Positions 7,605-26,394 of a stretch of 64,000 bases of DNA are shown here, piece by piece (position 1 is the first letter of the stretch; each line of letters starts with the position of its first letter). The position numbers and the translations under genes are program-made. The notes under the pieces were generated by a model. That model did not search any database and was not told where the DNA came from. It was given only the letters and a program-made list of their open reading frames with translations. The stretch is from Tubulanus polymorphus (taxonomy: Eukaryota; Animalia; Nemertea). Location: positions 4,340,001 through 4,404,000 of the forward strand of contig NC_134025.1 of the NCBI RefSeq assembly GCF_964204645.1. The letters are read 5' to 3'.

Positions 7605-10600
7605 ATGCCGACGGAAAGCGACGAATTTGGGAGAACCAGGTAAGGTATTAATTTTGCTAATCTAATATATCACACACCCTTGGGCCGGGAGAGCAGTACC
7701 TGCATTTCTCTCTGTCCTGCAGTTTAAGTTAATTATACGTAAACCCTTTTTTTCGAAGGAAACGTCGGTAAAATAATAATCTAATTTCGAACATTATCAG
7801 TTACAAGATTCCCACTACAGTAGCTCGTTAGCTAGCGGACAATCCCTGAGCTATAACAAATTTCCTCTAACGACCAGATGTGCTCGTTTAAAGCTTCTTA
7901 TGTAGAATTTCACTTATAAGGCCTATACGTATATTTTCTCCGAAATGAAAATCATTAGAATATGCTAGCCTACTTAGGACTGGGTGTCGTAATGTTCAAC
8001 CATTTCATCTGATATCATTTGTGAATATCGTCATGAACATTTGCACATGCCGAAAGAGTGTTTCTGGTACTTCACCATTGTAAGTATTTTTCATCTCGCT
8101 TTCTATTGTTTTAAGAAGAGGAAAACCTGTCCTGGGACGGCAAATATTGATCCCTTGTCGAATACTTGTTAACAGGTGCTTTGACAATATGCAATTTCCA
8201 CCATTTCAACATGTAGAATGTTTCTCATTTCAGTCGCCTCGGTGTGTTCCGTGGATCGAGTGATACCGAACTCTTCAAACCTCAAGGAACGATTCCAACG
8301 CGGCAAAAACATCGCCAACATTCACCCGAACGTCGTAAATATACAGGTGTTCGTAAGCGAGATCACAGCCTACGGGAGTTAAAAAGAAGTTCCGTGAATC
8401 GTACTCGAACTGTAGCAGCCGTCTCTGCGACAGGTTTCGCCGATGACGAGGTATCTTCTAGACCACAAGGCAGGAATAAACGCGCTGTTAAGTCCAGTCG
8501 CTCGATATCAGAACCGGGTCCGAATCCGTATCAGCGAATCAGAACCAGTAAACGAGATTTAGAATCAACGGGCAATTTATTGCGCGATGATCATCATGAC
8601 AGCGAACTAGGGAGGGGATCCACATCAGAGCCTGATGTACGTCGTAAATCATTGAATTTTGACTCAATAAATCTGTCCGCTTCGCATTCTTCTATATCAA
8701 CGACGAAATGGCCAGATCGTAAAAACAGTCGTTCTATCGAACAGACGCAAAGACCTCCGCCAAAATTCGAAATTCCCGAAGTTCGCGTACAACCTCCCAC
8801 GACAGACACCGAATCGGAATCAACTGGAACTGAAACAAAGGATTTGACTCAAACCACTCGATCAATTAGCAATCATAATGATACGTCTCGGACTACATCG
8901 GAACGTGGCCCTTACGAATCAGCAACCAACGAAGTTAGTAACGTCAAATCAGCATATTAGTACATGATGCAGCATTTCTTTATTAGTCGTTCGTTCATCA
9001 TTTCTATTAGGTATTCTACTGCAGCTCAAAAGAGAGCTTGACTCTCACCTTGTCAGGGCAGCTTGTCAGGAATCTCCTACACTCTTCAAAATTCTCACCA
9101 AAGCGCTTATGGGGAGAGTTTTTTTTTTATCCCGCTTTCTAATTAACACTCTTATGTATACAATCTATCATCCGGGTTGTTGATGATATTCAACTAAACC
9201 GAATAGCTGGATATCCTCAGTTGATTGTTCGCCAACTGAATGATTATTTGCTGCGGGATCTTACAAACGATTTGATTTAGAAATATGTAATTATTTCAAT
9301 ACAAACCAGGATGATATATCAAAAACATACCTATTTTGTAATTTTGTATACATATGATATGATGACGATGTCCGCGTCGTTACAGGTACCAAAACTGGAC
9401 ACAACTGCACTCATAGGCGATAAATGTAATATTCCACTGGATAATGAAGTCTCATCGGTAAAAGTAGAACGAAATATTCTAGCCAAATCACTTTCGAGTG
9501 AGAAATCGGGAGAAATCTCTCATAATGCAGATGTTGATAACGATAATGTAGATAAAGCCGAATCAAAGATGGATAAAACAACTAAAGATATTTCTACGGA
9601 AGCTATTAAACAAATAGAGGAGATTGAATCAGATGATGATGATGACATTCTAAATCGTTCAAGACAGGTAAACGTGAATCTATAAAATTTATAGCTCCAA
9701 ATAATAAATGCGATTCCATCTCAAACACATGGAGTATAATTTCACTGAATGATACGCAGTTCACGTATAATTTCTACCTGAAATGAAGATTTTTATAACT
9801 GAATAGGGATTGTAATTACTCAGTCTTTTGTAGGAGGAGGATTTTGAAATAGAATCAAGTGAATTTGTTTTCGACCCAGACGGTAATATTTCGTACTACT
9901 GGATGGTAAGTACGTGTACATAGGTGTTGGGAATGGAAATTCGACTTCGACTTTTGTTCCCGTTGATAAGACGATTTGATTCGATTTCGAATCCCCAGCT
10001 CCCATTTGTTTCACAAATCACAGCATTTTCTGTTTTTCTTCTGGCTCCGTTGAATGTTCGATTAATCTAAAAACAGTCCTAACTTATGAAATTTATTTTC
10101 GATGAAACGTAACACATCATCATACTACATTGTGAAATATATGTAATTAGATTTGCGAGGTATCGGCAAGTCGCATGGATTATACATACTACATTCAAAC
10201 AACATGTTTTTCAATATTCAATAATTGAGATAAGCATTTAAAACAGCTGAACTATTATTGTATTGATTCTTATTGAATACATAGTTGCATTAGATTCCCG
10301 TTTCGAGTACACATCGCAGCTAGAAAATATTTTTGCGCCTTATGAAATATTAATTAGAAACAAGAATGATGATGAAAAATCAATACGCCCTTTATGAAAT
10401 TTCAATTCTGTGTACACCTGGTATATTCCATTACCAGATTTCTACTGTGCTTTCAGGGACTTGTTACTTTGACGGTGATGTATAACTGTTGGATGATCAT
10501 ACTAAGAATTGCTTTTCCAGAAATGCGCGAAGATGTAAGCTCCAACAAATTTATATCAAATAGCGCAAATAATTGAGTACCACGTGTATTAAGGCCAGCA

Positions 10601-13600
10601 TACATTATGAATTCATGTAGTTTATATGACATAAGTAGTCTTACTTAAGGAATAATAATATCATCACAAGTGACACTTATTTGAGACTATTGAAAGTTGA
10701 TGTTCCCCCTCGTATTAAAAGTCGTGAAAAATACGTCATCGTGCTTTTTTTGGTTTTTCAGCTTGTAAACCAAAGAATGTTTAACTTCTTCGACTTGGTT
10801 TGCGATCTATTCTACCTTGCCGATGTCTTCGTTCAGTTGCGTACTGCTTACCTGGAAAACGGAATTTTGGTAAGATAACCGCAGTAATATTGATATTGGC
10901 TTATGCCGTATTTCAAAATGCTGGAATACGTAAAGATTGTACATTGTCCGTGTATCGAAAAATGGTTCTTATTTCGTTCAGGTGCTCGATCCGGTGAAAT
11001 TAAGTCGGAACTACAGGCGGAAACCGGAATTCATACAAGATATGATCGCCATTGCACCAGTAGGAACCCTAGCTACTTTCGTCGCAAGTCAGTGTAAAAC
11101 CATCCTTTCACACAAAAATGTTGAATAGAAATATGGCATGACATTCTTTTAACTTGTATTATAGGGTTTACAGATACTGCTATCATGGATATTGGGGATA
11201 TCGATGGATGTAAGTTGAATATTATGAATCATATTTACTAAAATTATCATTATGTGAACATCTGTTTAGGCGGGAAAGTAGTATTATACAAACTCCGACC
11301 TCTCAAACCTTGAGCGCATTTATAAAGTGGGTGTCAACTTCTCTCAATGATATTTTGAAATTTGAAAACCCTGGACAAGAGTCTTATTTTTCTCGAGGAT
11401 TTCATATCTGTCATAATCACGCTTTTAATTCTCTTTTTTTCATAGCTGATGTCTATATACCAATTGTCCGAATTCCAAGACTGCTGAAGGTGTCTACTGT
11501 CGGTAGATTTTTCGATATTTCAGACAGTCGCACAAGTAACCCTAATATAATCAGAGCGATGAAACTGTCAATGTATCTAACTTTGGTCATTCACTGGATA
11601 GCTTGTTTTTATTATATGGTATCGCTTGTAAGTGAACTCTTCATCGCTTCTTACGATTAGATGAGCTCCAAGCGATTACCTCGGATTATTTGCCTTCTCT
11701 TGCAGTACGAAGGATTGGGCAGCAATGATTGGGTGTACCCTAATAAAACAGAAGACCTGGTATTCAGAAGGTAGGGCGAAATAATCAAACATCATAGTCC
11801 ATGGTGTCTGTCAAAATAAGTTCTGATTCAAAATTCAGAAGAAAATTTTCGGAATTTCGGAGTGCAATGTACTTGCATAACGACATTGTTCATGCTTATA
11901 TAACACGTAAATCTGCCCATTATATATTTGCAGAAAATACGTGTTATGTATCTACTGGGCAATGATGACTTTGACGACGATCGGGGAGACTGCTGGTCCA
12001 ACGACTGATCTTGTAAGTTTTTGTTTTTCTGTTTCAGCACGTATATACGAACTCTTTATTGGGCAACTATGACCCTTACTACCATCGGTGGTACTAATGT
12101 ACCTGTCACTACAATAGTGAGTATCTATATTGTTTAGTTAGGTTATCGTTGACTGTTTTGATATTGGGATTGGATTCTTTGAGTGCCCGACACTTTATTT
12201 GACGTGATGAAGTAGACACTTATTTCCGACACATTAGAACATCAACCGCTCAACGACTACTTTCAGGAATATATCTTCACTGGTGTTACGTTCCTCATCG
12301 GCGTTTTCGTTTTCGCCGCCGTTGTGGGTAACGTTGGCGACGTCATCAGCAATATGAACGCTGCCCGTCAAGAGTTTCAGTCGAGGATGGACCAGATAAA
12401 ATTCTATATGAATCATAGACGAGTACCAGAAGTATTGCAGAACCGAGTCAAACGATGGGCCGATTATTCCTGGTCGAGGTATGCCTCGACACAACCACAG
12501 CCGCTGAACATACGTGAATAATTTAAATTACCCGTGAACGTATTTTAATGAACCTACTGTTGAAGATACATACATATACTGAAAATCTAACATGAATTAT
12601 TTAGAATGAATTTTTGAGGCGTAGTCTATATACAATCGTATTTGGGTGTTTGTTTGTAGAACTCAGGCGATGGATGAAATATCTATGCTTGAAATGTTGC
12701 CAGAGAGAATTCGGACAGAAATAGCTATACACGTCCATCTCGAGACTCTTAAGAAGGTACCGCTATTTCGCTGATAGCCTATTGTTATATCATCGTTAAA
12801 AGCTAATGTCATTCTCACGCGATCGTCACTATTTTCCGAGCGCTCTAAGTCCACCCTCTGAATAGTAATGATTGCGTATGATGTTTTTAAGGTGAAGATT
12901 TTCGAAGAGTGTGAAATCGGTTTATTACACGAACTCGTGCTGAAATTACGAGCTCAGATTTATTCACCTGGTGATTACATTTGTAGAACTGGAGAAATCG
13001 GTAGATAGTTTTTAAAGGACATTTTTGAAGACTTTTTCTCGTAGCAAATCATGACTGCGTAGGCCTATATATAGTTTATACTTCGTTTCAGGGAGAGAAA
13101 TGTATATAATTAATCACGGCAAAGTAGAGGTACGCGAACCGGAATTGTTCGGTATGAATTTCATAAATTCGATCTAACCATATGATCTAACATTCGTTTC
13201 ATTGAAGATCCTCGTTAACAACTCGACCGCACCGGGAGGAAAGATGGTAGTTGCCAGTTTATCGGAAGGAAATTATTTCGGGGAGATTAGTTTGCTTAAA
13301 TTGGATTCTGGACAGAATAAGTATGTGCTCTTTCATCAACTAACGCAAAATCTATCAAATAAAAGCATCTTAATGAACGGGATTATTTTGTAGACGAACA
13401 GCTGATGTGAGATCTGTTGGATATTCCGAACTATTGGTTCTGTCTAGACGGGATTTGATGAGTGTAAGTATCACATGTGTATATTCGATTAATACACTAT
13501 CGACTGTTTTCAGTACAATTTCTAAATTCTTGATTTTGAATTTTCTAGGCCCTTGTCGAGTATCCTGATGCAAAACAAATATTAGAAGCACAAGCTCGAG

Positions 13601-15006
13601 AGAGGTACATATATATACATTACAAGAGGGTTATGGGCAAATTGAGTAAATCGAGTAAACAGGCATCTTAATGATACCACCCTCTCATTTCAATAATCAC
13701 TTAGATTTAAAATGATCAGACATGGTTCATAAAAACGAGAGAAATCCCACAATAAATTCAGCCAAAAATGAAAAGTTCTATATTAAGTACTGATGATGGC
13801 TAATAGCATTTAGCCGAAAGGTTGCTCGAAATATAATCATCTTTATATAGAACTTTTCATTTTTGGCTGAATTTATTGTGGGATTTCTCTCGTTATCATC
13901 ATACACGGATATTGTGTATTTTCTCGTCTCATGCTTCATTTTGATATGATATCATCTCATTATCGGTAAACAGGATGGAGAAAAATCGAGAGGTTCGTCG
14001 CACGAGTACAGTCGAGTCGAGTGATTCACAGGGAGCTACTGTACCCTCTGCTAATACCGAGCCTCCTTCTTCAAACAAGAAGAAGGACCAACTGATGCAA
14101 CTCATCAAATCAAATGATTTTCAACGCCTCGTTAAAGGAGGAAAAGTCGACGTTGGTAATTGATCTCGTGTTTCAAGAAATGAATTAGTTAAAAAGAGAA
14201 TAGTGATTCATAACGAATCAATTATTTCACAGGAAAAGAAATGTCTGAATTGCGACATGTGATACGAGAATTGAGAAGTTTCGATAGTCAATCGACAAAA
14301 TATCGCATTCAACAGTTAGCTGAAAAGGTCGGTATGGAGATTTTCGACAGAGTTTGTAATCTTATTTCGGTAACTATAACCGGATGCATATATAATAATA
14401 ATGTTGATGTGTATCTCGTAATTTTAGTGCGACGGTTTACAAGAGAAATTAAGAAAACGAGATGTAGAATTACGTCACGCAATTCGTCGAGTGAACGAAC
14501 TTGAGTTAATTCTGGCAAGTCCCGAGGAACGTGTGAAATTACAGTCTCGCAAAAAGTGCAATGGAATATCGCTGAGGCATCGGAAACATAAAGAACCAAA
14601 TAGTTCTGATAGTTTTCTACCCGCAGACACAAACGGAGCGAGCCATTCGCGTAAAATGCGAAGGCAGCAGCGCAGTGAAAGTACTGAAAGTTCTAATTCT
14701 CACAATTCCCCGCGGGATAAGATACATAGTCTCAGTCACGTGGTAGTGCCCGGAATCAGTATTAACGGTGTCGTAGAACAGGAAGTATCTAACTTGATTA
14801 TCGAAAAGGATGACGATGACGATGATCTTGAGATTGACGATGAACTCGATAATCGTGAAGAAAATGAAAAGGTTGTTCCGAACATTTTAGCGGATCTGGA
14901 AAGATTAGCGAACGATGTCAATTTGTACAGTGATACCTCCAAGTATAGTGACGACTTCAGTTCGACTGAAAACTCTTCCGATGATGACGACACGGATGAT
15001 AGATGA
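7605..15006 (+). CDS. Cyclic nucleotide-gated cation channel, A(alpha)-type backbone, multi-exon; true 5' end uncertain
   Basis: Frame-consistent GT-AG exons: 7605-7639, 8234-8933, 9386-9667, 9834-9905 ([14 protein letters not shown]), 10457-10534 (S1), 10762-10869 (S2, [22 protein letters not shown]), 10982-11087, 11165-11209, 11446-11627 (S4-S5, IHWIACFYY), 11706-11770, pore exon 11934-12012 OR 12038-12116, 12267-12478 (S6/C-linker, [19 protein letters not shown]), 12660-12756, 12892-13000 ([14 protein letters not shown]), 13092-13129, 13208-13320 (FGEISLL), 13394-13463 ([13 protein letters not shown]), 13549-13604, 13974-14155, 14233-14327, 14428-15006 (coiled-coil, then acidic tail). Confidence 0.95.
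11934..12012 (+). other. CNG pore exon variant A (79 nt): [27 protein letters not shown]-type TIGE filter
   Basis: Acceptor tttgcag ends at 11933 and donor gtaagt starts at 12013. Phase 2 in and phase 0 out match the flanking exons. Filter Glu codon GAG at 11986-11988. Confidence 0.92.
12038..12116 (+). other. CNG pore exon variant B (79 nt): [27 protein letters not shown]-type TIGG filter
   Basis: Acceptor tttctgtttcag ends at 12037 and donor gtgagt starts at 12117. Same length and phases as variant A, no stop codon. Gly codon GGT at 12090-12092 replaces the filter Glu. Confidence 0.88.
13734..13894. repeat. Perfect 50-bp inverted repeat (61-nt loop) in a CNG intron; probable mobile-element remnant
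   Basis: 13734-13783 AACGAGAGAAATCCCACAATAAATTCAGCCAAAAATGAAAAGTTCTATAT is the exact reverse complement of 13845-13894. Confidence 0.9.
13786..13826 (+). ncRNA. Degenerate minimal (type I) hammerhead-ribozyme-like motif
   Basis: CTGATGA (13790-13796), extra T, stem II GGCTAA/TTAGCC, GAAA (13816-13819), possible stem I AGTA/TGCT. Stem III and the NUH cleavage site are not canonical (GAAAGGTTG), so it is probably inactive. Confidence 0.4.
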
Positions 15007-15688
15007 TTATTCATAATATATCGGAAAAATGATTAAATCTTTATCCAGTGTATTCGATTTAAGTGGATATTTAACCATTATGATGGACAAATGAGTATTA
15101 ATCTGTCGAAATGGAATATTTTTACACGAACGACGCATAATAAATCATCAAACGGTTACTAATTCAGCGTAGCTCAAAGTTGTATTGATGCAGGTTTGAA
15201 AGGAAATTTCATTTGAATTTGCTTTATGATACATAGCTGTCACATCACGACTATTAAAGAAATGCGCAAGATTTCTTTTCTTGTTTCAAGATCTAATTGA
15301 GGTCCAACACTTTGAGGTGTAGTACTGCTATGGGGTTTCGAGGTTTTCACGATCGTTGTTTGTGTCGTATTAGTTATTGAGATGGAAAAATAGGAATTTT
15401 TTTTCATTTCGAGTTATATCTCAACACAGATTCATTTACGATTAGAAAATAGTTATGCCGATATCAAAATATGACTTGACATGAAATCAAATTTTCCTTA
15501 TAAATGATGCCCCCATTACGCTTCCATGAATTTGATTTACAATGATAAACGGACAACTGAAATGCTACTTATGAACATTGCCTTCCATTAGCAATTAGCA
15601 GTTAGAATTAAATAATTTATCGCTATATTACCTAAATGCGAGCGATCTTAGTTTCCGACACACTGTCCACAAGTCCAGAGCCGATGAT

Positions 15689-16852
15689 ATGGAATCGCTC
15701 GTAAAAACTGCTGTATTTATGGCGATCATCACGGATGGAGTTTCTAGTTCAGTTTGCACAAGACAGCTATGCGTGAATCATTGTAAAGCAATCGGTATGA
15801 ATTGTTTTGGAATAGAAATAGATAGGTCGGATGGTTTATGTTGTCACCATGTAAGCACCGAATTTGCGAACGGTAAGAATTGTAACATTTGAAAACTAAG
15901 AATCATTACATCGGTTTGAATGTCTATAAAACACGTAACTCGTAGAAATATGCTCGCTTTTATAAGTATTCACAACACAAACAAACAATTTACACAAAAT
16001 ACATGATCGATTTTACCGATCACACCAGATCCTCATCAGGTCTACTTAGTGTGGGTCTTGTGTGATAATCCAATAACTCTCTATATAATTTGTCGATACT
16101 TTGATACTGGCGTGTCAATTGTTTTCGGATTGATTCAGAAACGGAAGACTTCGAAGATGGATTTGGTTTTTGGGTAACAGGTGGATCAGGGTCCTGGAAA
16201 CGTTACATTGGAAAAACACCGTCGGAAAACACAGGGCCGTCTGGTGATCATACGTCTGGCGGAGGTACGAATTTTTATGTTGAGTGACAACCTAGTCAGT
16301 TCAATTCGTAACTCCTTGAATTGCTTCATATTATTTACTCATTATAATCTAGGTTATTACATATATCTGAAATCGCCCTGGTATGGTAACTGTTATGTAA
16401 GACTCTACAGAATGCTGACGACAACATCAAACAAATGTAAAATGCACTTCTCGTACCACATGTCCGATGATATGACTACAATGTCATCTTATCTCAGACT
16501 TACGATTGGAAGTTCTCAAGTTTTTAAACTTTGGGGAAATCAAGGAAATCAATGGTTTACCAGCGCAAGTTTTGGTGTACCTGCTGGGGTGAATCAATGG
16601 GTAAGGTTCACTCTATACCAAAATGATCTTTCTTGTTATTCTATCGTCAAAAGCATGAAATCGTTCTCTTTTCGCTGTTTTGTCGCTATGGCCAGCTTAA
16701 TCGTAATTTCATTGTTTTTCCTTGTATCTACTAAGTACTAAAATCCAGTTTCTTGTGTTTTCCTTGAATTACAGATTATCTTCACTGGGTACAAAACCTA
16801 TGTATCCCGTTTTGAGATGGCTCTTGACGACATCGTATTTACGAACTGTTAA
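15689..16852 (+). CDS. Secreted Cys-rich + MAM domain protein, copy 1 (211 aa)
   Basis: Exons 15689-15872, 16139-16264, 16353-16600, 16775-16852. Signal-peptide-like MESLVKTAVFMAIITDGVSS, a 6-Cys segment, then MAM motifs DFEDG..W, TPSENTGPSGDHT.GGGYYIYL, C.MHFSYHM, GNQGNQW, ALDDIVFTNC. Confidence 0.88.
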
Positions 16853-17524
16853 ACATCACAATGAAATGGGTTTCAGAAGGAAATGTTAAAATTTATCAAT
16901 TATTTCACTTAAAATATATAACTATGGTAAAAACCAAAGAGGAATTAACATACGCAATACGACGATAATGCATTCGAAATATTGAATTGCATCTTATATC
17001 ACTTTATGTACGAAATTGATTTCATATTATTCTTTTTCTCTACTCGCTGATTGGAATTTGAAACCGAGAAGTCGTAGGTTCTAAGCGAAGTCGTTATTTC
17101 TAATAAATATGAACTCATGCCAATAAAAGTCAGTAATTCCATGATGCAGTTGTAGTTATTATTATGAGAATGACGTTGACTAATTGCAAGGATACATTTC
17201 TCATATCACAGAAGTGATACACACATAAATAATGCATATGCTTTTAGATACGTAGATGTTATCCAGGTTTCTGAAATGTATAAATGCCATTCGTTTAACG
17301 TCACAACACCGTGACGCATGTGAAAAATACACGTGATAAAAGTAACCTCGTTTCGTCAACTGTCAACGTGATATCCACTAGGGAAGGACAGTCGGAACCC
17401 GCAATGATTACTATTTGCCGTTGAAAACGATATTGGGATTTCTGTGTACTAGAATAGCACATATTTACCGCCGAAATATATAAATCTTCTCATTATATTC
17501 TTTTCTATACAATACGGACCACTG

Positions 17525-17623: not shown

Positions 17624-18561
17624 CTGGAGCCTAATTGATACTAATCCGTGCCAAATTTTAAATGATAATTCTATATTTTCGTAGATAACGATATTCTATT
17701 CTTTAGCAAAACTCATCCCCAGATTTACTGTATTGCAGACTCATTTTATTATAAAGAATGCCAGTTGTGTAGGTTCACATATATTTTTAAGAGTCTGAAA
17801 ATTTTCTCGGAGTCCAGCGCACTAATCGGTTAATAGTTTGTCCCCTACGGCCATCAAAGACTTTGGCAAGCGAGTATTATGTTAGTTCACATTTTCTCCG
17901 CTATGGTTATACGTAGGGGCACTACAAGACGGTCGAGATCGGACCTCACTGTGGCGGGCGAATCGTGCTTTATTTGATGAAATTAATAGAAATGAAATTC
18001 TCAAACTTTTGAATAGAAATGATTCTCAATTTGATCGATACGATTTTTTATTTCCTAAACACATTCCCTAATACTATTATCAGATACTCCTACTGAATTT
18101 ATGGCCAGTTTATCGAAAAGTTCTGGGTTAAAAACACCCGGTTCTTCGGGTAATATGATAATAAAAAAGTATTTGGTTACGTATTCAGCGTCATTCATAG
18201 TAAAAGTTATCATCACAGTTTGGAAGGAAATTTCATATAATTTCGAATAAGTCACCACTAGCAAACGAATGTCCATGATTTTCTAAGCAAGATTTCTTTT
18301 TATTGGAACTATGTCTTTGAGATCTAATTGTGGTCCATTATTGGAGGTACCGGTATATGGTTTCGGAGCTGGTCGCTGTCGTTATCGGTTTCGCATTGGT
18401 TATTGATAATTTGTTGTGGGGCAAAGTAAATTTGAGTTCACGTTGGTTAACGATCTACTGCTACTTTCCAATAATGATTTAATGATTCATTCCTATATCA
18501 GATAAAATGAATGAGTGTGATATTAGTTTCCGGCACCATGTCCAGGTCCAGAGCCGATGAT

Positions 18562-19730
18562 ATGGAATCGCTCGTAAAAACTGCTGTATTTATGGCGATC
18601 ATCACGGTTGGAGTTTCTAGTTCAGTATGCACAAGACAGCTATGCGTGAATCATTGTAAAGCAATCGGTATGAATTGTTTTGGATTAGAAATACATAGGT
18701 CGGATGGTTTATGTTGTCACCATGTAAGCACCGAATTTGCGAACGGTAAGAATTGTAACATTTGAAAATTAAGAATCATTACATCGGTTTGAATGTCTAT
18801 AAAACACGTAACTCGTAGAAATATGCTCGCTTTTATAAGTATTCACAACAAAAACAAACAATATACACAAAATACATGATCGATTTTACCGATCACACAA
18901 GATCCTCATCAGGTCTACTTAGTGTGGGTCTTGTGTGATAATCCAATAACTCTCTATCGAAATAACTAATTCGTCGATACTTTGATACTGGCGTGTCGAT
19001 TGTTTTCGGATTGATTTAGAAACGGAAGACTTCGAAGATGGATTTGGATTTTGGGCAACTAGTGGATCAGGGTCCTGGAAACGTTACATTGGAAAAACAC
19101 CGTCGGAAAACACAGGGCCGTCTGGTGATCATACGTCTGGCGGAGGTACGAATTTTTATGTTGAGTGACAACCTAGTCAGTTCAATTCGTAACTCCTGAA
19201 TTGCTTCATATTATTTACTCATTATAATCTAGGTTATTACATATATCTGAAATCGTCCCAGTATGGTAACTATTATGTAAGACTCTACAGAATGCTGGCG
19301 ACAACATCAAACAAATGTAAAATGCACTTCTCGTACCACATGTACGATGATATGGCTACAATGTCATCTTATCTCAGACTTAAGATTGGAAGTTCTCAAG
19401 TTTTTAAACTTTGGGGAAATCAAGGAAATCAATGGTTTACCAGCGCAAATATTGATGTACCTGCTAGGGTGAATAATTGGGTAAGGTTCACTCTATACCA
19501 AAATGATATTTTTGTTATTCTATCATCAAAAGCATGAAATCGTTCTCTTTTCGCTGTTTTGTCGCTATGGCCAGCTTAATCGTAATTTCATTGTTTTTCC
19601 TTGCATCTAATTGAACTAAAATCCAGTTTCTCGTGTTTTCCTTGAATTACAGATTATCTTCACTGGGTACAAAGGCTATGGATCCCGTTTTGAGATGGCT
19701 CTTGACGACATCGTATTTACGAACTGTTAA
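18562..19730 (+). CDS. Secreted Cys-rich + MAM domain protein, copy 2
   Basis: Exons 18562-18745, 19020-19145, 19233-19480, 19653-19730. Same structure as copy 1, open frame. Confidence 0.88.
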
Positions 19731-20418
19731 ACATGACAATGAAATGGGTTTCAGAAGAAAATGTTAAAATCTATCAATTATTTCACTTAAAATATATAAC
19801 CATGGTAAAAACCAAAGAGGAATATAGATACGAAATACCACGATAGCGCATTCGAAATATTGAATTGCATCTTATATCACTTTATTTACGAAATTGATTT
19901 CATATTATTCTTTTTCTCTACTCGCTGATTGAGTTTATATGTGATTGGAATTTGAAACCGAGAAGTCGTAGGTTCTAAGCGAAGTCGTTATTTCTAATAA
20001 ATATGAACTCATGCCATTTAAAGTCAGTAATTCCATGATGCAGTTGTAGTTATTATTATGACAATGACGTTGACTAATTGCAAGGATACATTTCTCATAT
20101 CACAGAAGTGATACACACATAAATAATGCATATGCTTTTAGATACGTAGATGTTATCCAGGTTTCTGAAATGTATAAATGCCATTCGTTTAACGTCACAA
20201 CACCGTGACGCATGTGAAAAATACACGTGATAAAAGTAACCTCGTTTCGTCAACTGTCAACGTGATATCCACTAGGGAAGGACAGTCGGAACCCGCAATG
20301 ATTACTATTTGCCGTTGAAAACGATATTGGGATTTCTGTGTACTAGAATAGCACATATTTACCGCCGAAATATATAAATCTTCTCATTATATTCTTTTCT
20401 ATACAATACGGACCACTG

Positions 20419-20517: not shown

Positions 20518-21455
20518 CTGGAGCCTAATTGATACTAATCCGTGCCAAATTTTAAATGATAATTCTATATTTTCGTAGATAACGATATTCTATTCTTTAG
20601 CAAAACTCATCCCCAGATTTACTGTATTGCAGACTCATTTTATTATAAAGAATGCCAGTTGTGTAGGTTCACATATATTTTTAAGAGTCTGAAAATTTTC
20701 TCGGAGTCCAGCGCACTAATCGGTTAATAGTTTGTCCACTACGGCCATCAAAGACTTTGGCAAGCGAGTATTATGTTAGTTCACATTTTCTCCGCTATGG
20801 TTATACGTAGGGGCACTACAAGACGGTCGAGATCGGACCTCACTGTGGCGGGCGAATCGTGCTTTATTTGATGAAATTAATAGAAATGAAATTCTCAAAC
20901 TTTTGAATAGAAATGATTCTCAATTTGATCGATACGATTTTTTATTTCCTAAACACATTCCCTAATACTATTATCAGATACTCCTACTGAATTTATGGCC
21001 AGTTTATCGAAAAGTTCTGGGTTAAAAACACCCGGTTCTTCGGGTAATATGATAATAAAACAGTATTTGGTTACGTATTCAGCGTCATTCATAGTAAAAG
21101 TTATCATCACAGTTTGGAAGGAAATTTCATATAATTTCGAATAAGTCACCACTAGCAAACGAATGTCCATGATTTTCTAAGCAAGATTTCTTTTTATTGG
21201 AACTATGTCTTTGAGATCTAATTGTGGTCCATTATTGGAGGTACCGGTATATGGTTTCGGAGCTGGTCGCTGTCGTTATCGGTTTCGCATTGGTTATTGA
21301 TAATTTGTTGTGGGGCAAAGTAAATTTGAGTTCACGTTGGTTAACGATCTACTGCTACTTTCCAATAATGATTTAATGATTCATTCCTATATCAGATAAA
21401 ATGAATGAGTGTGATATTAGTTTCCGTCACCATGTCCAGGTCCAGAGCCGATGAT

Positions 21456-22625
21456 ATGGAATCGCTCGTAAAAACTGCTGTATTTATGGCGATCATCACG
21501 GTTGGAGTTTCTAGTTCAGTATGCACAAGACAGCTATGCGTGAATCATTGTAAAGCAATCGGTATGAATTGTTTTGGATTAGAAATACATAGGTCGGATG
21601 GTTTATGTTGTCACCATGTAAGCACCGAATTTGCGAACGGTAAGAATTGTAACATTTGAAAATTAAGAATCATTACATCGGTTTGAATGTCTATAAAACA
21701 CGTAACTCGTAGAAATATGCTCGCTTTTATAAGTATTCACAACAAAAACAAACAATATACACAAAATACATGATCGATTTTACCGATCACACAAGATCCT
21801 CATCAGGTCTACTTAGTGTGGGTCTTGTGTGATAATCCAATAACTCTCTATCGAAATAACTAATTCGTCGATACTTTGATACTGGCGTGTCGATTGTTTT
21901 CGGATTGATTTAGAAACGGAAGACTTCGAAGATGGATTTGGATTTTGGGCAACTAGTGGATCAGGGTCCTGGAAACGTTACATTGGAAAAACACCGTCGG
22001 AAAACACAGGGCCGTCTGGTGATCATACGTCTGGCGGAGGTACGAATTTTTATGTTGAGTGACAACCTAGTCAGTTCAATTCGTAACTCCTGAATTGCTT
22101 CATATTATTTACTCATTATAATCTAGGTTATTACATATATCTGAAATCGTCCCAGTATGGTAACTATTATGTAAGACTCTACAGAATGCTGGCGACAACA
22201 TCAAACAAATGTAAAATGCACTTCTCGTACCACATGTACGATGATATGGCTACAATGTCATCTTATCTCAGACTTAAGATTGGAAGTTCTCAAGTTTTTA
22301 AACTTTGGGGAAATCAAGGAAATCAATGGTTTACCAGCGCAAATATTGATGTACCTGCTAGGGTGAATCAATGGGTAAGGTTCACTCTATACCAAAATGA
22401 TCTTTCTTGTTATTCTATCATCAAAAGCATGAAATCGTTCTCTTTTCGCTGTTTTGTCGCTATGGCCAGCTTAATCGTAATTTCATTGTTTTTCCTTGCA
22501 TCTAATTGAACTAAAATCCAGTTTCTCGTGTTTTCCTTGAATTACAGATTATCTTCACTGGGTACAAAGGCTATGGATCCCGTTTTGAGATGGCTCTTGA
22601 CGACATCGTATTTACGAACTGTTAA
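21456..22625 (+). CDS. Secreted Cys-rich + MAM domain protein, copy 3
   Basis: Nearly identical to copy 2 (NQW instead of NNW at the end of exon 3). Same four exons, TAA at 22623-22625. Confidence 0.88.
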
Positions 22626-23310
22626 ACATGACAATGAAATGGGTTTCAGAAGAAAATGTTAAAATCTATCAATTATTTCACTTAAAATATATAACCATGG
22701 TAAAAACCAAAGAGGAATATAGATACGAAATACCACGATAGCGCATTCAAAATATTGAATTGCATCTTATATCACTTTATTTACGAAATTGATTTCATAT
22801 TATTCTTTTTCTCTACTCGCTGATTGAGTTTATATGTGATTGGAATTTGAAACCGAGAAGTCGTAGGTTCTAAGCGAAGTCGTTATTTCTAATAAATATG
22901 AACTCATGCCATTTAAAGTCAGTAATTCCATGATGCAGTTGTAGTTATTATTATGACAATGACGTTGACTAATTGCAAGGATACATTTCTCATATCACAG
23001 AAGTGATACACACATCAATAATGCATATGCTTTTTAGATAGATGTTATCCAAGTTTCTAAAATGTATAAATGCCATTCGTTTAACGTCACAACACCGTGA
23101 CGCATGTGAAAAATACACGTGATAAAAGTAACCTCGTTTCGTCAACTGTCGACGTGATATCCACTATGGAAGGACAGTCGGGACACGCAATGATTACCAT
23201 TTGCCGTTGAAAACGATAGCGGGATTTCTGTGTACTAGAATAGCGCATATTTACCGCCGAAATATATAAATTTTCTCATTATATTCTTTTCTATACAATA
23301 CGGACCACTA

Positions 23311-23384: not shown

Positions 23385-24355
23385 CAGCTGGAGCCTAATT
23401 GATACTATCCGTCCCCAATTTTAAATGATGATTCTATATTTTCGTAGATAACGATATTCTATTTTTTTTTAAATCAAAACTCATCCCTAAATTTACTCTA
23501 TTACAGACTAATTTCATTAGAAAGAATGCCAGTTGTGTAGGTTCACATATATTTTTGAGAGTCTGAAAACTTTCTCCAGCGCGAGTCCAGCGCACTAATC
23601 GGTTAATAGTTTGTCCACTACGGCCATTCAAAAACTTTGGCAAGCGAGTATTATGTTAGTTCACGTTTTCCCGCTATGGTTATACATAGGGGCACCACAA
23701 GTCGGTCGAGATCGGACCTCACTGTGGCGGGCGAATCTTCGTGCTTTATTTGATGAAATTAATAGAAATGAAATTCTCAAACTTTTGAATAGAAATGATT
23801 CTCAATTTGATCGATACGATTTTTTATTTTGCTTAACACATTCCCTAATACTTATAAAAAATTATCAGATACTCCTACTGAATTTATGGCCAGTTTATCG
23901 AAAAGTTCTGGGTTAAAAACACCCGGTTCTTTGGGTAATATGATAATAAAACAGTATCTGGTTACGTATTCAGCGTCATTCATAGTAAAAATTATCATGA
24001 CAGTTTGAATGGAAATTTCATATAATTTCGAATGTCACCACTAGCAAACGAATGTCCATGATTTTCTAAGCAAGATTTCTTTTTATTGGAACTATGGAAG
24101 TCTTTGAGATCTAATTGTGGTCCATTATTGGAGGTACCGGTATAGGGTTTCGGAGCTGGTCACTGTCGTTATTAGTATCGTATTGGTTATTGATAATTTG
24201 TTGTGCGGCAAAGTAAATTTGGGTTAACAATGATTAACGATCTACTGAAATGCTACTTTCCAATAATGATTTAATAATTCATTCCTATATCAGATAAAAT
24301 GAATGAGTGTGATATTAGTTTCCGACAAACTGTCCCCAAGTCCAGAGCCGATGAT

Positions 24356-25541
24356 ATGGAATCGCTCGTAAAAACTGCTGTATTTATGGCGATCATCACG
24401 GATGGAGTTTCTAGTTCAGTATGCACAAGACAGCTATGCGTGAATCATTGTAAAGCAATCGGTATGAATTGTTTTGGAATAGAAATAGATAGGTCGGATG
24501 GTTTATGTTGTCACCATGTAAGAACCGAATTTGCTAATGGTAAGGATTCTAATGTATATAAAAACTAAGAGTTATAGAGGTTTAAAATATCCATAAACAC
24601 TCAACTGGTAGAATACCCTCACTTTTATGAAATTCGCAACGAAAAACATTCAAAATGCATGATCGATTTCGATGTTTACACAAGATTTTCATCTGGTATA
24701 ACTGGCGAGAATCTTGTGTAATGAATAACAGTTACCCCTTACCAGAATTTACATCGGTTTGCTAAACTAATTCACCACTGTTTTGATATTGTTTTGATAG
24801 TGTTTCAATTTTCTTTTGATTCATTTAGAAACGGAGGACTTCGAAGATGGATTTGGTTTTTGGGAAACAACAGGTGGATGGAATCGTTACATTGGAAAAA
24901 CACCGACGGAAAACACAGGGCCATCTGGTGATCATACGTCTGGCGAGGTATGAATTCTTCCTGCATTTTTCATGCTGAGTGAGAACAGTCATTTCAATTC
25001 GTGACTCCTTGAATTGCTTCATATTATGTACTCATTATAATCTAGGTTATTACATATATCTGAAAGCGCCTAGAAATAAAAACTATCATGTAAGACTGTC
25101 CAGAATACAGACGACAACATCAAACAAATGTAAAATGCACTTCTCGTACCACATGTACGATGATATGGCTACAATGTCATCTTATCTTAAACTTACGATT
25201 GGAGCTTCTGAAGTTTTTAAATTTTCGGGAAATCAAGGAAATCAGTGGTTTACCAGCGTAAGTTTTGATGTACCTGCAGATCAATGGGTAAGGATCATTC
25301 TATACCGAAATCACCTTTCTTGTTATTCTATCGTCAAAAGCATGAAATCGTACTCTTTTCGATGTTTTGTCGTTGTCGCCAGCCTAATCGTAATTCCATA
25401 GTTTTTCCTTGTATCTACTAAGTACTAAAATCCAGTTTCTTGTTTTTCTTTCTTGAATTACAGATTATCTTCACTGGATTCAAAACCTATGTTTCCTCTT
25501 TTGAGATGGCTCTTGATGACATTGTATTTACGAATTGCTAA
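24356..25541 (+). pseudogene. MAM domain gene copy 4, diverged, with apparent 1-bp deletion frameshift
   Basis: Exon 2 (24829-24947) ends TCT GGC GAG|gt (phase 0), whereas copies 1-3 end TCT GGC GGA G|gt (phase 1). Joined to exon 3 (starts 25046) it reads GTT ATT ACA TAT ATC TGA. Could be a sequencing indel. Confidence 0.7.
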
Positions 25542-26394
25542 ACATGACAGTGAGATGTGTTTCAGAAAAAAAAAGTTAAAATTAATCATTTATTTCACTT
25601 ACAAACATACAAGTATGGTTAAAAGATCAAAAAGGAAATAAAATTAGAAATATCAAGATATCATGTTCGAAATATTGAATTGTATCTTATATCTCTTCAT
25701 GTAACGTCCCATTACGTCATAGATTATCATTACGCATGAGAAAAATATGCGTGACGTCAGCGAAGAAATTTTAGAAGGTCCAAATATTGCAACTCACTGT
25801 TTTGATTTATTCGGTAACCAGACCACCAGTGAGAAAAATGCGAGCTAGAAGATGACGGCAGAACTGCAAGCGAATCTCGTAAATACCAACGTCCGGCTCA
25901 CAGGGACGCTTTTCGATTTAGTTACACCTACTGAATTTTTCTTCCCAATTATTCATCTCTCAAGGTCAAGCTTAACAAAAATCCGTGGAATCAATTCATT
26001 TTCCAAATATTGGTACTTTCATTTGTTTATATTTACGTGGCCTCATTATATCCAATCAGTTATCAATCTATTAAGTAAGGCAATAATTTGAATCAAAAGG
26101 TCAAAAATTTCATGATTCTGACTGTAGAGCATATTCTCAACAACCTGTTAAATCTGTAATCGCGTATCATTAATCGGATACGTATCATTAATGATGACAC
26201 AGTGGTGTTACAAGTGAACGCTTGCTTGCCCCTGACATTAACTGCTTTAACCAAAGTCTGTTATGAAATTCATCGCATGGGTTGAATTTACCAAATATGA
26301 TTCGTCGTTGGTATATGACTACTGGCAAGTGTTATGCGCACTTCGCGAAGTATTATGTGCGCTTGGCTTAGTTCTCACAAATATACAAGCAGTC

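Follow-up and report, generated by a model that had tools for sequence, protein, structure and literature searches.

A CNG channel gene with two adjacent pore exons

The window analyzed here is a stretch of 64,000 nucleotides from the nemertean Tubulanus polymorphus (contig NC_134025.1, positions 4,340,001 to 4,404,000); all coordinates below are counted from its first letter, and all exons lie on its + strand. Positions 9569-15006 hold a CNG channel gene, the coding span being that of the RefSeq model XP_074659135.1 (794 amino acids, 19 exons). The window encodes all 794 residues of this model letter for letter, its coding sequence being interrupted by 18 introns (73-551 nt), all of them GT-AG. 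The protein carries Ion_trans and cNMP_binding domains and a filter of the form TIGx, and its best solved relatives are CNG channels, which is what is found in a metazoan CNG channel. A second CNG gene was not found within the window.

Two other features of the window may be recorded. An intronic, MITE-like inverted-repeat element of high copy number occupies 13734-13935; its arms are 82% self-complementary, and its depth is very high in all four sequencing runs that contain this DNA. Elsewhere, a unit of 1.4-1.7 kb is present in four tandem copies that are 82-94% identical (15607-17300, 18477-20194, 21371-23086, and 24269-25703). The first two of these start with a + strand open reading frame (15689-15892 and 18511-18765), signal-peptide-like at its beginning and then cysteine-rich.

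The feature of interest lies between two constitutive exons, both placed by a spliced contig and by the RefSeq mapping. The upstream exon (11706-11770) encodes the turret and ends in phase 2. The downstream exon (12267-12478) begins in phase 0, encodes S6 and the start of the C-linker, and is 100% identical to XP_074659135.1. Between them, with a donor after 11770 and an acceptor before 12267, stand two exons that each encode a pore helix and a selectivity filter. Exon A (11934-12012) has the filter TIGE, its Glu codon being 11986-11988. Exon B (12038-12116), which is the one used by the RefSeq model and whose homologous Gly-encoding exons are annotated in other phyla, has the filter TIGG, its Gly codon being 12090-12092. 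Each is 79 nt long, runs from phase 2 to phase 0, and has AG before it and GT after it. The initial annotation had described two tandem exons of this length and phase with good splice sites, and both the coordinates and the translations match.

It had also held that either exon alone restores the reading frame, while both or neither break it, and a frame test confirms this. The frame stays open with exon A alone or with exon B alone; a stop falls 46, 30, and 46 codons past the upstream exon when the transcript includes both exons, neither exon, or both exons with the 25-nt spacer between them. The two exons are identical at 14 of 26 residues and at 43 of 79 bases (54% DNA identity). At eight of the 14 residues that they share, the codons differ synonymously, and these eight include all six differences that had been listed earlier. 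Used alone as a query against the PDB, exon A finds CNGA2 (E=5e-5) and exon B finds CNGA3 (E=0.0013). A pore-exon profile, itself built with exons A and B among its members, gives them 58 and 49 bits and nothing else in the window more than 7 bits.

Thus, the two exons are adjacent, homologous, equal in length and phase, and bounded by canonical splice sites, as mutually exclusive tandem exons are. They also obey a single-exon frame rule, as seen in the stops just described, and are set so close together that joint inclusion is probably blocked, with a spacer of 25 nt against 73 nt for the shortest intron. It is very likely that the either-or exon pair is real.

The subfamily to which the gene belongs

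The gene had been called an “A-backbone” gene, that is, a classical alpha subunit. This did not hold. In whole-protein comparison it does score higher against CNGA (448 bits) than against CNGB (305 bits). However, the CLZ domain (PF16526) was not found in XP_074659135.1 or in eight relatives, while it is present in both CNGA controls, and a tree built without the pore segment places the gene in a clade apart from CNGA (support 100/100 with 37 rows; 100 with 98 rows). Members of this clade come from ctenophores, a sponge (Corticium), cnidarians, molluscs, an annelid, chelicerates, a priapulid, echinoderms, hemichordates, and amphioxus. Tunicate and vertebrate members were not found among the clade matches listed. 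Within the clade, two possible ancient bilaterian paralogue groups receive support of 94 in quick trees, although only 83/86 in a careful tree.

Lagman et al. (2022; PMC9803222) describe CNGC as a CNGA-like clade without CLZ, found in ctenophores, cnidarians, and some bilaterians, and lost in Olfactores. The clade found here is alike in these respects and in its absence from tunicates and vertebrates, and the sponge member is an addition to it. None of eight accessions or accession stems that were tried occurs in the text supplements of that paper. The gene is therefore probably CNGC, an assignment made by distribution only.

A separate observation concerns the ligand. In an ungapped reading, the C-helix (encoded around 13549-14000) has Asn where the CNGA controls have an Asp, the cGMP-selecting residue. 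The ligand preference of this channel may differ as a result.

Exon B had been described as “beta-type.” Here, the single filter Gly stands, and the rest does not. Exon B scores 21.4 bits against CNGA pores and 16.3 bits against CNGB pores. The two other hallmarks of CNGB, a Lys or Arg in the pore helix (filter -7) and an Arg in S6 (filter +32), are Met and Gly here, at positions taken from the numbering in PMC10761061 under a gap-free alignment. The possibility that exon B came from a CNGB gene was rejected for these reasons; exon B is a copy of exon A.

How joint inclusion might be avoided

The spacer (12013-12037), a feature absent from the initial annotation, consists of the exon A donor followed directly by the pyrimidine tract and acceptor of exon B. 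A distance of less than 50 nt between donor and branch point is an accepted steric cause of mutual exclusion (PMC5740500). Here, the candidate branch point for exon B is a CTGAT at 12005-12009, with its branch A at 12008. This lies inside exon A, 29 nt before the exon B acceptor and 5 nt upstream of the exon A donor. It is the only branch-point-like motif 15-45 nt before that acceptor. CTRAY motifs are rare in this gene, being found at two of its 20 acceptors, and CTGAT is therefore ranked as a candidate.

A second element may act on exon A. An RNA hairpin is predicted over its acceptor (11884-11964), with a stem of 13 bp (11897-11909 with 11938-11950), a stem of 5 bp that pairs the AG (11930-11934), and an outer stem of 9 bp. 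Its predicted energy is -29.8 kcal/mol (z -5.4), matched by none of 200 shuffles. At the remaining 19 acceptors, z values run from -2.3 to +1.2. The hairpin ranks first among 570 segments over the gene, the next best having a z of -5.1, in a comparison where it was noticed before the segment was chosen and the grid begins on it by chance. Pairings over a longer range, which would join the intron to both exons, were also considered; these are short and are not claimed.

These elements suggest a mechanism. A spacer of 25 nt, far below the intron size of the gene, would prevent the joining of exon A to exon B. The donor of exon A and the branch point, pyrimidine tract, and acceptor of exon B, crowded into about 40 nt, would compete for recognition. 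The hairpin, when folded over the exon A acceptor, would favor exon B. As a backstop, inclusion of both exons or of neither would shift the frame. Splicing thus likely picks exactly one of the two tandem pore exons.

Exon use in Tubulanus

Four sequencing runs of one study contain this DNA, none of them on record as RNA; one is treated as RNA solely on the ground of the GT-AG joints in its contig. That spliced contig (2946 nt, depth 36.6) joins 11770 to 11934 and 12012 to 12267, and so carries exon A alone. The same run gave an unspliced contig of 192 nt (12094-12285, depth 2.9) that is silent on exon choice, and two other runs resemble DNA. The initial annotation had named the junctions of both exons as a check. 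Those of exon A are present in the one spliced contig, and none of exon B was seen in the two contigs of that run. Contigs, of course, drop variants of equal length, and exons A and B have equal length; this absence is thus uninformative and is no evidence against the use of exon B.

The RefSeq model starts at 9569, downstream of a 5′ exon of the spliced run (8615-8933), and its choice of exon B may therefore rest on homology rather than on reads. We nevertheless regard it as highly probable, on the strength of that model, that exon B is used in this species.

The spliced contig is also informative about the start of the protein. It joins the exon at 8615-8933 to position 9386, which extends the first RefSeq exon (9386-9568). 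The real N-terminus is longer than that of the 794-residue model, and an open stretch of 239 codons rich in Ser, Thr, and Arg (frame 8217-8933) covers the 5′ exon.

Occurrence in other animals

The clade was surveyed through the members of 30 protein clusters, read as they are annotated, where an annotation may miss an exon. Both filter types are found in four of these clusters. In three of the four they occur as isoform pairs of equal length, five pairs in all: Ptychodera flava X1/X2 and X3/X4, Asterias rubens X1/X2, a pair in A. amurensis, and Acanthaster X1/X2. All 11-12 differences within each pair lie inside the homologous interval of 27 residues and include the exchange of Glu for Gly. 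These deuterostome isoforms are database models, seen as proteins and not as genomic exons. In the fourth cluster, that of the crinoids, the two types are in two different species. The proposal that the same pair be sought in other invertebrates was thus borne out, with Glu/Gly isoform pairs annotated in four deuterostome species. Together with the contig that has exon A only and the RefSeq model that has exon B, these pairs uphold the earlier view of a mutually exclusive pair, old and conserved, through which the filter Glu is exchanged for Gly.

The other 26 clusters have one type annotated. Gly is found in Lineus, urchins, one hemichordate gene, one amphioxus gene, and ctenophores; Glu, Asp, or Asn is found in molluscs, chelicerates, an annelid, cnidarians, a sponge, and a second amphioxus gene. 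Priapulus, represented by a single protein, has Gly. Neither the 12 other protostome clusters, nor 23 matches to shorter proteins, nor 150 listed representatives at 50% added a species with both types, and no protein among those examined has two pore motifs in tandem.

Metagenome loci offer a view of the exon itself. In eight such loci, of coral, bivalve, and other type, the exon is again 79 nt long and has identical borders, with a single copy found per locus, which argues that these borders predate the duplication. Two pore exons were found in none of 14 metagenome loci, several of which are too short to exclude a second; two have one pore exon only over the stretch read.

Pairs of related genes that have consecutive accession or locus numbers or share a scaffold length occur in amphioxus, Ptychodera, and Saccoglossus. 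In amphioxus, one gene of the pair has Gly only (13 of 13 proteins) and the other Glu only (all three that have a pore). In Ptychodera, one gene has both types and the other Gly only. Possibly, splice forms were shared out between such genes after duplication.

Ctenophore members combine TIGG with an upstream junction that lacks the Ser discussed below, and some members from spiders, horseshoe crabs, and an annelid have TIGN; the filter charge has, therefore, been lost more than once in this subfamily. Three database models skip the pore exon together with neighboring exons, a sign that the pore region is often mis-annotated.

One origin or several

In each of the four deuterostome comparisons, exon A is identical to the Glu exon at 20 of 27 residues and to the Gly exon at 14; it shares 14 of 27 with its own twin. 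Exon B is nearer to the Gly than to the Glu exons in three of the four comparisons, the exception being Saccoglossus (17 of 27 with the Glu exon, 16 of 27 with the Gly exon). In an exon tree of 39 rows and 27 columns, exon A groups with ambulacrarian Glu exons (94/70, and 96/78 without the filter column). Exon B falls in a Gly group (93/70) that includes one Asn exon and dissolves when the filter column is removed.

The residue at the upstream junction adds to this. It is Ser or Cys in 11 of 12 bilaterian Gly rows and in none of 20 Glu, Asp, or Asn rows, a count from which seven non-bilaterian rows were left out; ctenophore Gly exons have Arg. Profiles trained on deuterostomes, with the filter column dropped, place three of three protostome Gly exons above all 14 non-Gly exons, these rows not being independent. 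Cnidarian and sponge Glu exons likewise lean to the Gly profile, which means that part of the likeness is ancestral.

From these comparisons, a single duplication before the split between protostomes and deuterostomes seems the likely history. An ancestral 79-nt exon, of which coral-type loci have one copy, would have been duplicated once before that split. One copy would then have taken Gly, and in many lineages the annotation now has a single type.

Predicted effect on permeation and gating

Vertebrate CNG channels have TIGE in their A subunits and TIGG in their B subunits (PMC10761061). As described there, the filter Glu is essential for Ca2+ permeation and block, the Gly of CNGB weakens block so that heteromers are blocked less, and replacing that Gly in CNGB1 by Glu restores or strengthens it. 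By analogy, the residue at the outer site of the filter, Glu or Gly, is predicted to set both the strength of Ca2+ and Mg2+ binding and block and the ease of opening. A tetramer made from exon A only would have four filter carboxylates, and each subunit made with exon B would remove one. The ratio of the two in a cell would then grade divalent block and Ca2+ entry, as CNGB does in heteromers, but from one gene.

In the Drosophila CNGA channel, the filter Glu need not give strong block, and block can be 16-fold weaker depending on the residues that follow the Glu (PMC4555469). The exon A filter is TIGETAGP, not TIGETPPP, and lacks two of the three prolines. By the vertebrate analogy, the isoforms probably differ in divalent block; the effect on gating may be just as large, and block, gating, or both may differ between them.

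Alternative explanations

Two alternatives concern the pair itself. The first is an artefact of assembly or haplotype. One run of DNA that spans the stretch may, indeed, be the source of the window. However, exons only 54% identical in DNA are poor candidates for such an error, a contig from a second run spans 12007-12162, across the spacer and exon B, and homologous pairs are present in other phyla. This reading is already largely refuted, and its remaining probability is negligible. The second is that Tubulanus retains exon B as a vestige, intact and yet seldom or never spliced. The spliced run does show the joints of exon A only, and exon B has the longest branch among the Gly exons (0.71) and has lost the Lys that they commonly have at the first full codon. 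Against this, the missing joints carry no weight for the reason given above, and exon B has kept an open frame, exactly 79 nt, good splice sites, and a core that is unchanged despite the synonymous differences at eight of 14 codons. The Gly exon is, moreover, the one used by the RefSeq model and by the Lineus models. That exon B is a vestige is improbable.

The other two alternatives accept the pair and question its history or its purpose. Nemerteans and ambulacrarians might each have duplicated the exon independently and each gained Gly. The change can recur, since ctenophore genes came to TIGG independently, and no other protostome cluster has both types. A tree in which Tubulanus A and B form a clade is not rejected by an AU test (p=0.146; 0.136 and 0.169 with Lineus), and one with an ambulacrarian Glu and Gly clade is rejected when the filter column is dropped (p=0.010) and not rejected when all columns are kept (p=0.079). 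These tests are weak at 27 columns, and the first tree was already known when the second set of constraints was chosen. The constrained trees are, however, 13-22 log units worse. Exon A remains nearer to the deuterostome Glu exons than to its own twin, and the Ser or Cys junction is common to the Gly exons of nemerteans, the priapulid, amphioxus, hemichordates, and echinoderms, but not of ctenophores. Separate duplications are thus an unlikely history. The Gly isoform might, alternatively, serve mainly in gating or as a partner subunit that dampens, through low open probability or voltage dependence, and not in Ca2+ selectivity. Even at saturating cGMP, homomers of bovine CNGA1 E363G have an open probability below 1% (PMC2229390), mutations around the filter make CNGA1 voltage gated (PMC2717697), and the isoforms differ at 11-12 residues rather than at one. 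Against this, the residues that change together may restore gating, and the annotation of Gly only in urchins, Lineus, the first amphioxus gene, and ctenophores suggests that Gly pores can work without a Glu twin from the same gene. A role chiefly in gating is rather unlikely, and it is, of course, compatible with a change in divalent block.

We consider it rather likely that the main explanation holds as a whole: two tandem pore exons, of which splicing likely picks one, giving a subunit with Glu or with Gly and a predicted change in divalent block and opening.

Relation to known systems

The closest known system is exon 15a/15b of NALCN. As described by Senatore et al. (2013; PMC3557258), exons 15a/15b and 31a/31b of that channel are likewise tandem, mutually exclusive pore exons that swap a key filter residue, likewise with the acidic exon upstream and the derived exon downstream. 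The NALCN pair is found in lophotrochozoans, echinoderms, and hemichordates, is single in cnidarians, and has lost one copy in many lineages. NALCN, however, is one chain of four domains in which Glu becomes Lys in one domain (PMC3557258). The CNG channel belongs to another family and is a tetramer of separate subunits in which Glu becomes Gly, so that zero to four subunits of either isoform could mix.

Vertebrate CNGA/CNGB heteromers differ at the same position, TIGE versus TIGG, but their subunits are encoded by separate genes that assemble 3:1 via CLZ, and CNGB has a pore-helix Lys or Arg and an S6 Arg (PMC10761061). The present gene has neither CLZ nor those two basic residues, and its exon B is a copy of exon A. 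In two other cases, splicing alters the pore by different means. Exon 12a/12b of invertebrate Cav3 changes selectivity through a swap of the extracellular turret (PMC6259924), and the alpha1/alpha2 forms of TRPM3 use two donor sites that add 12 residues (PMC9290681). As described, neither exchanges duplicated filter exons.

No precedent for a splice-switched filter in CNG channels had been known to the initial annotation, and no account of splicing that switches a CNG pore exon was found in the open-licence literature, the field covered here; subscription papers were outside its scope. The survey of the subfamily by Lagman et al. (2022) merged isoforms at 95% identity before analysis, which would hide such pairs, and its main text does not have the word “pore” (PMC9803222). 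The Glu/Gly isoforms thus sit unremarked in RefSeq.

Implications for CNG channels

A broader picture can be drawn, although tentatively, being perhaps a little less probable than an even chance. Here, the CNG gene of the bilaterian ancestor would have spliced its own “beta-like” subunit, and the Glu and Gly exons would have been kept for more than half a billion years. Overlapping splice signals and an RNA hairpin would act as the toggle, and the ratio of isoforms in mixed tetramers would dial Ca2+ entry. Later lineages would have fixed one filter (acidic or Asn in molluscs and chelicerates, Gly in urchins) or, in amphioxus, split the two between neighboring gene copies. If this is true, the amphioxus split is a living parallel to the division between CNGA and CNGB.

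In the channels that serve vision and smell, it is the Glu/Gly site that decides how Ca2+ permeates and blocks, and variation there has so far been known only between genes. One gene with both filters, apparently since early bilaterians, would provide a natural pair that differs in one segment of 26 residues. With this pair, one may study what keeps a Gly filter stable and open, and whether mixed ratios grade Ca2+ entry. The pair bears on how a division of labor between alpha and beta subunits can arise, and it would make a second channel family that shows the evolutionary pattern of NALCN. An uncharacterized CNG subfamily thereby also gains its first functional handle, one that is directly testable in sea stars and acorn worms.
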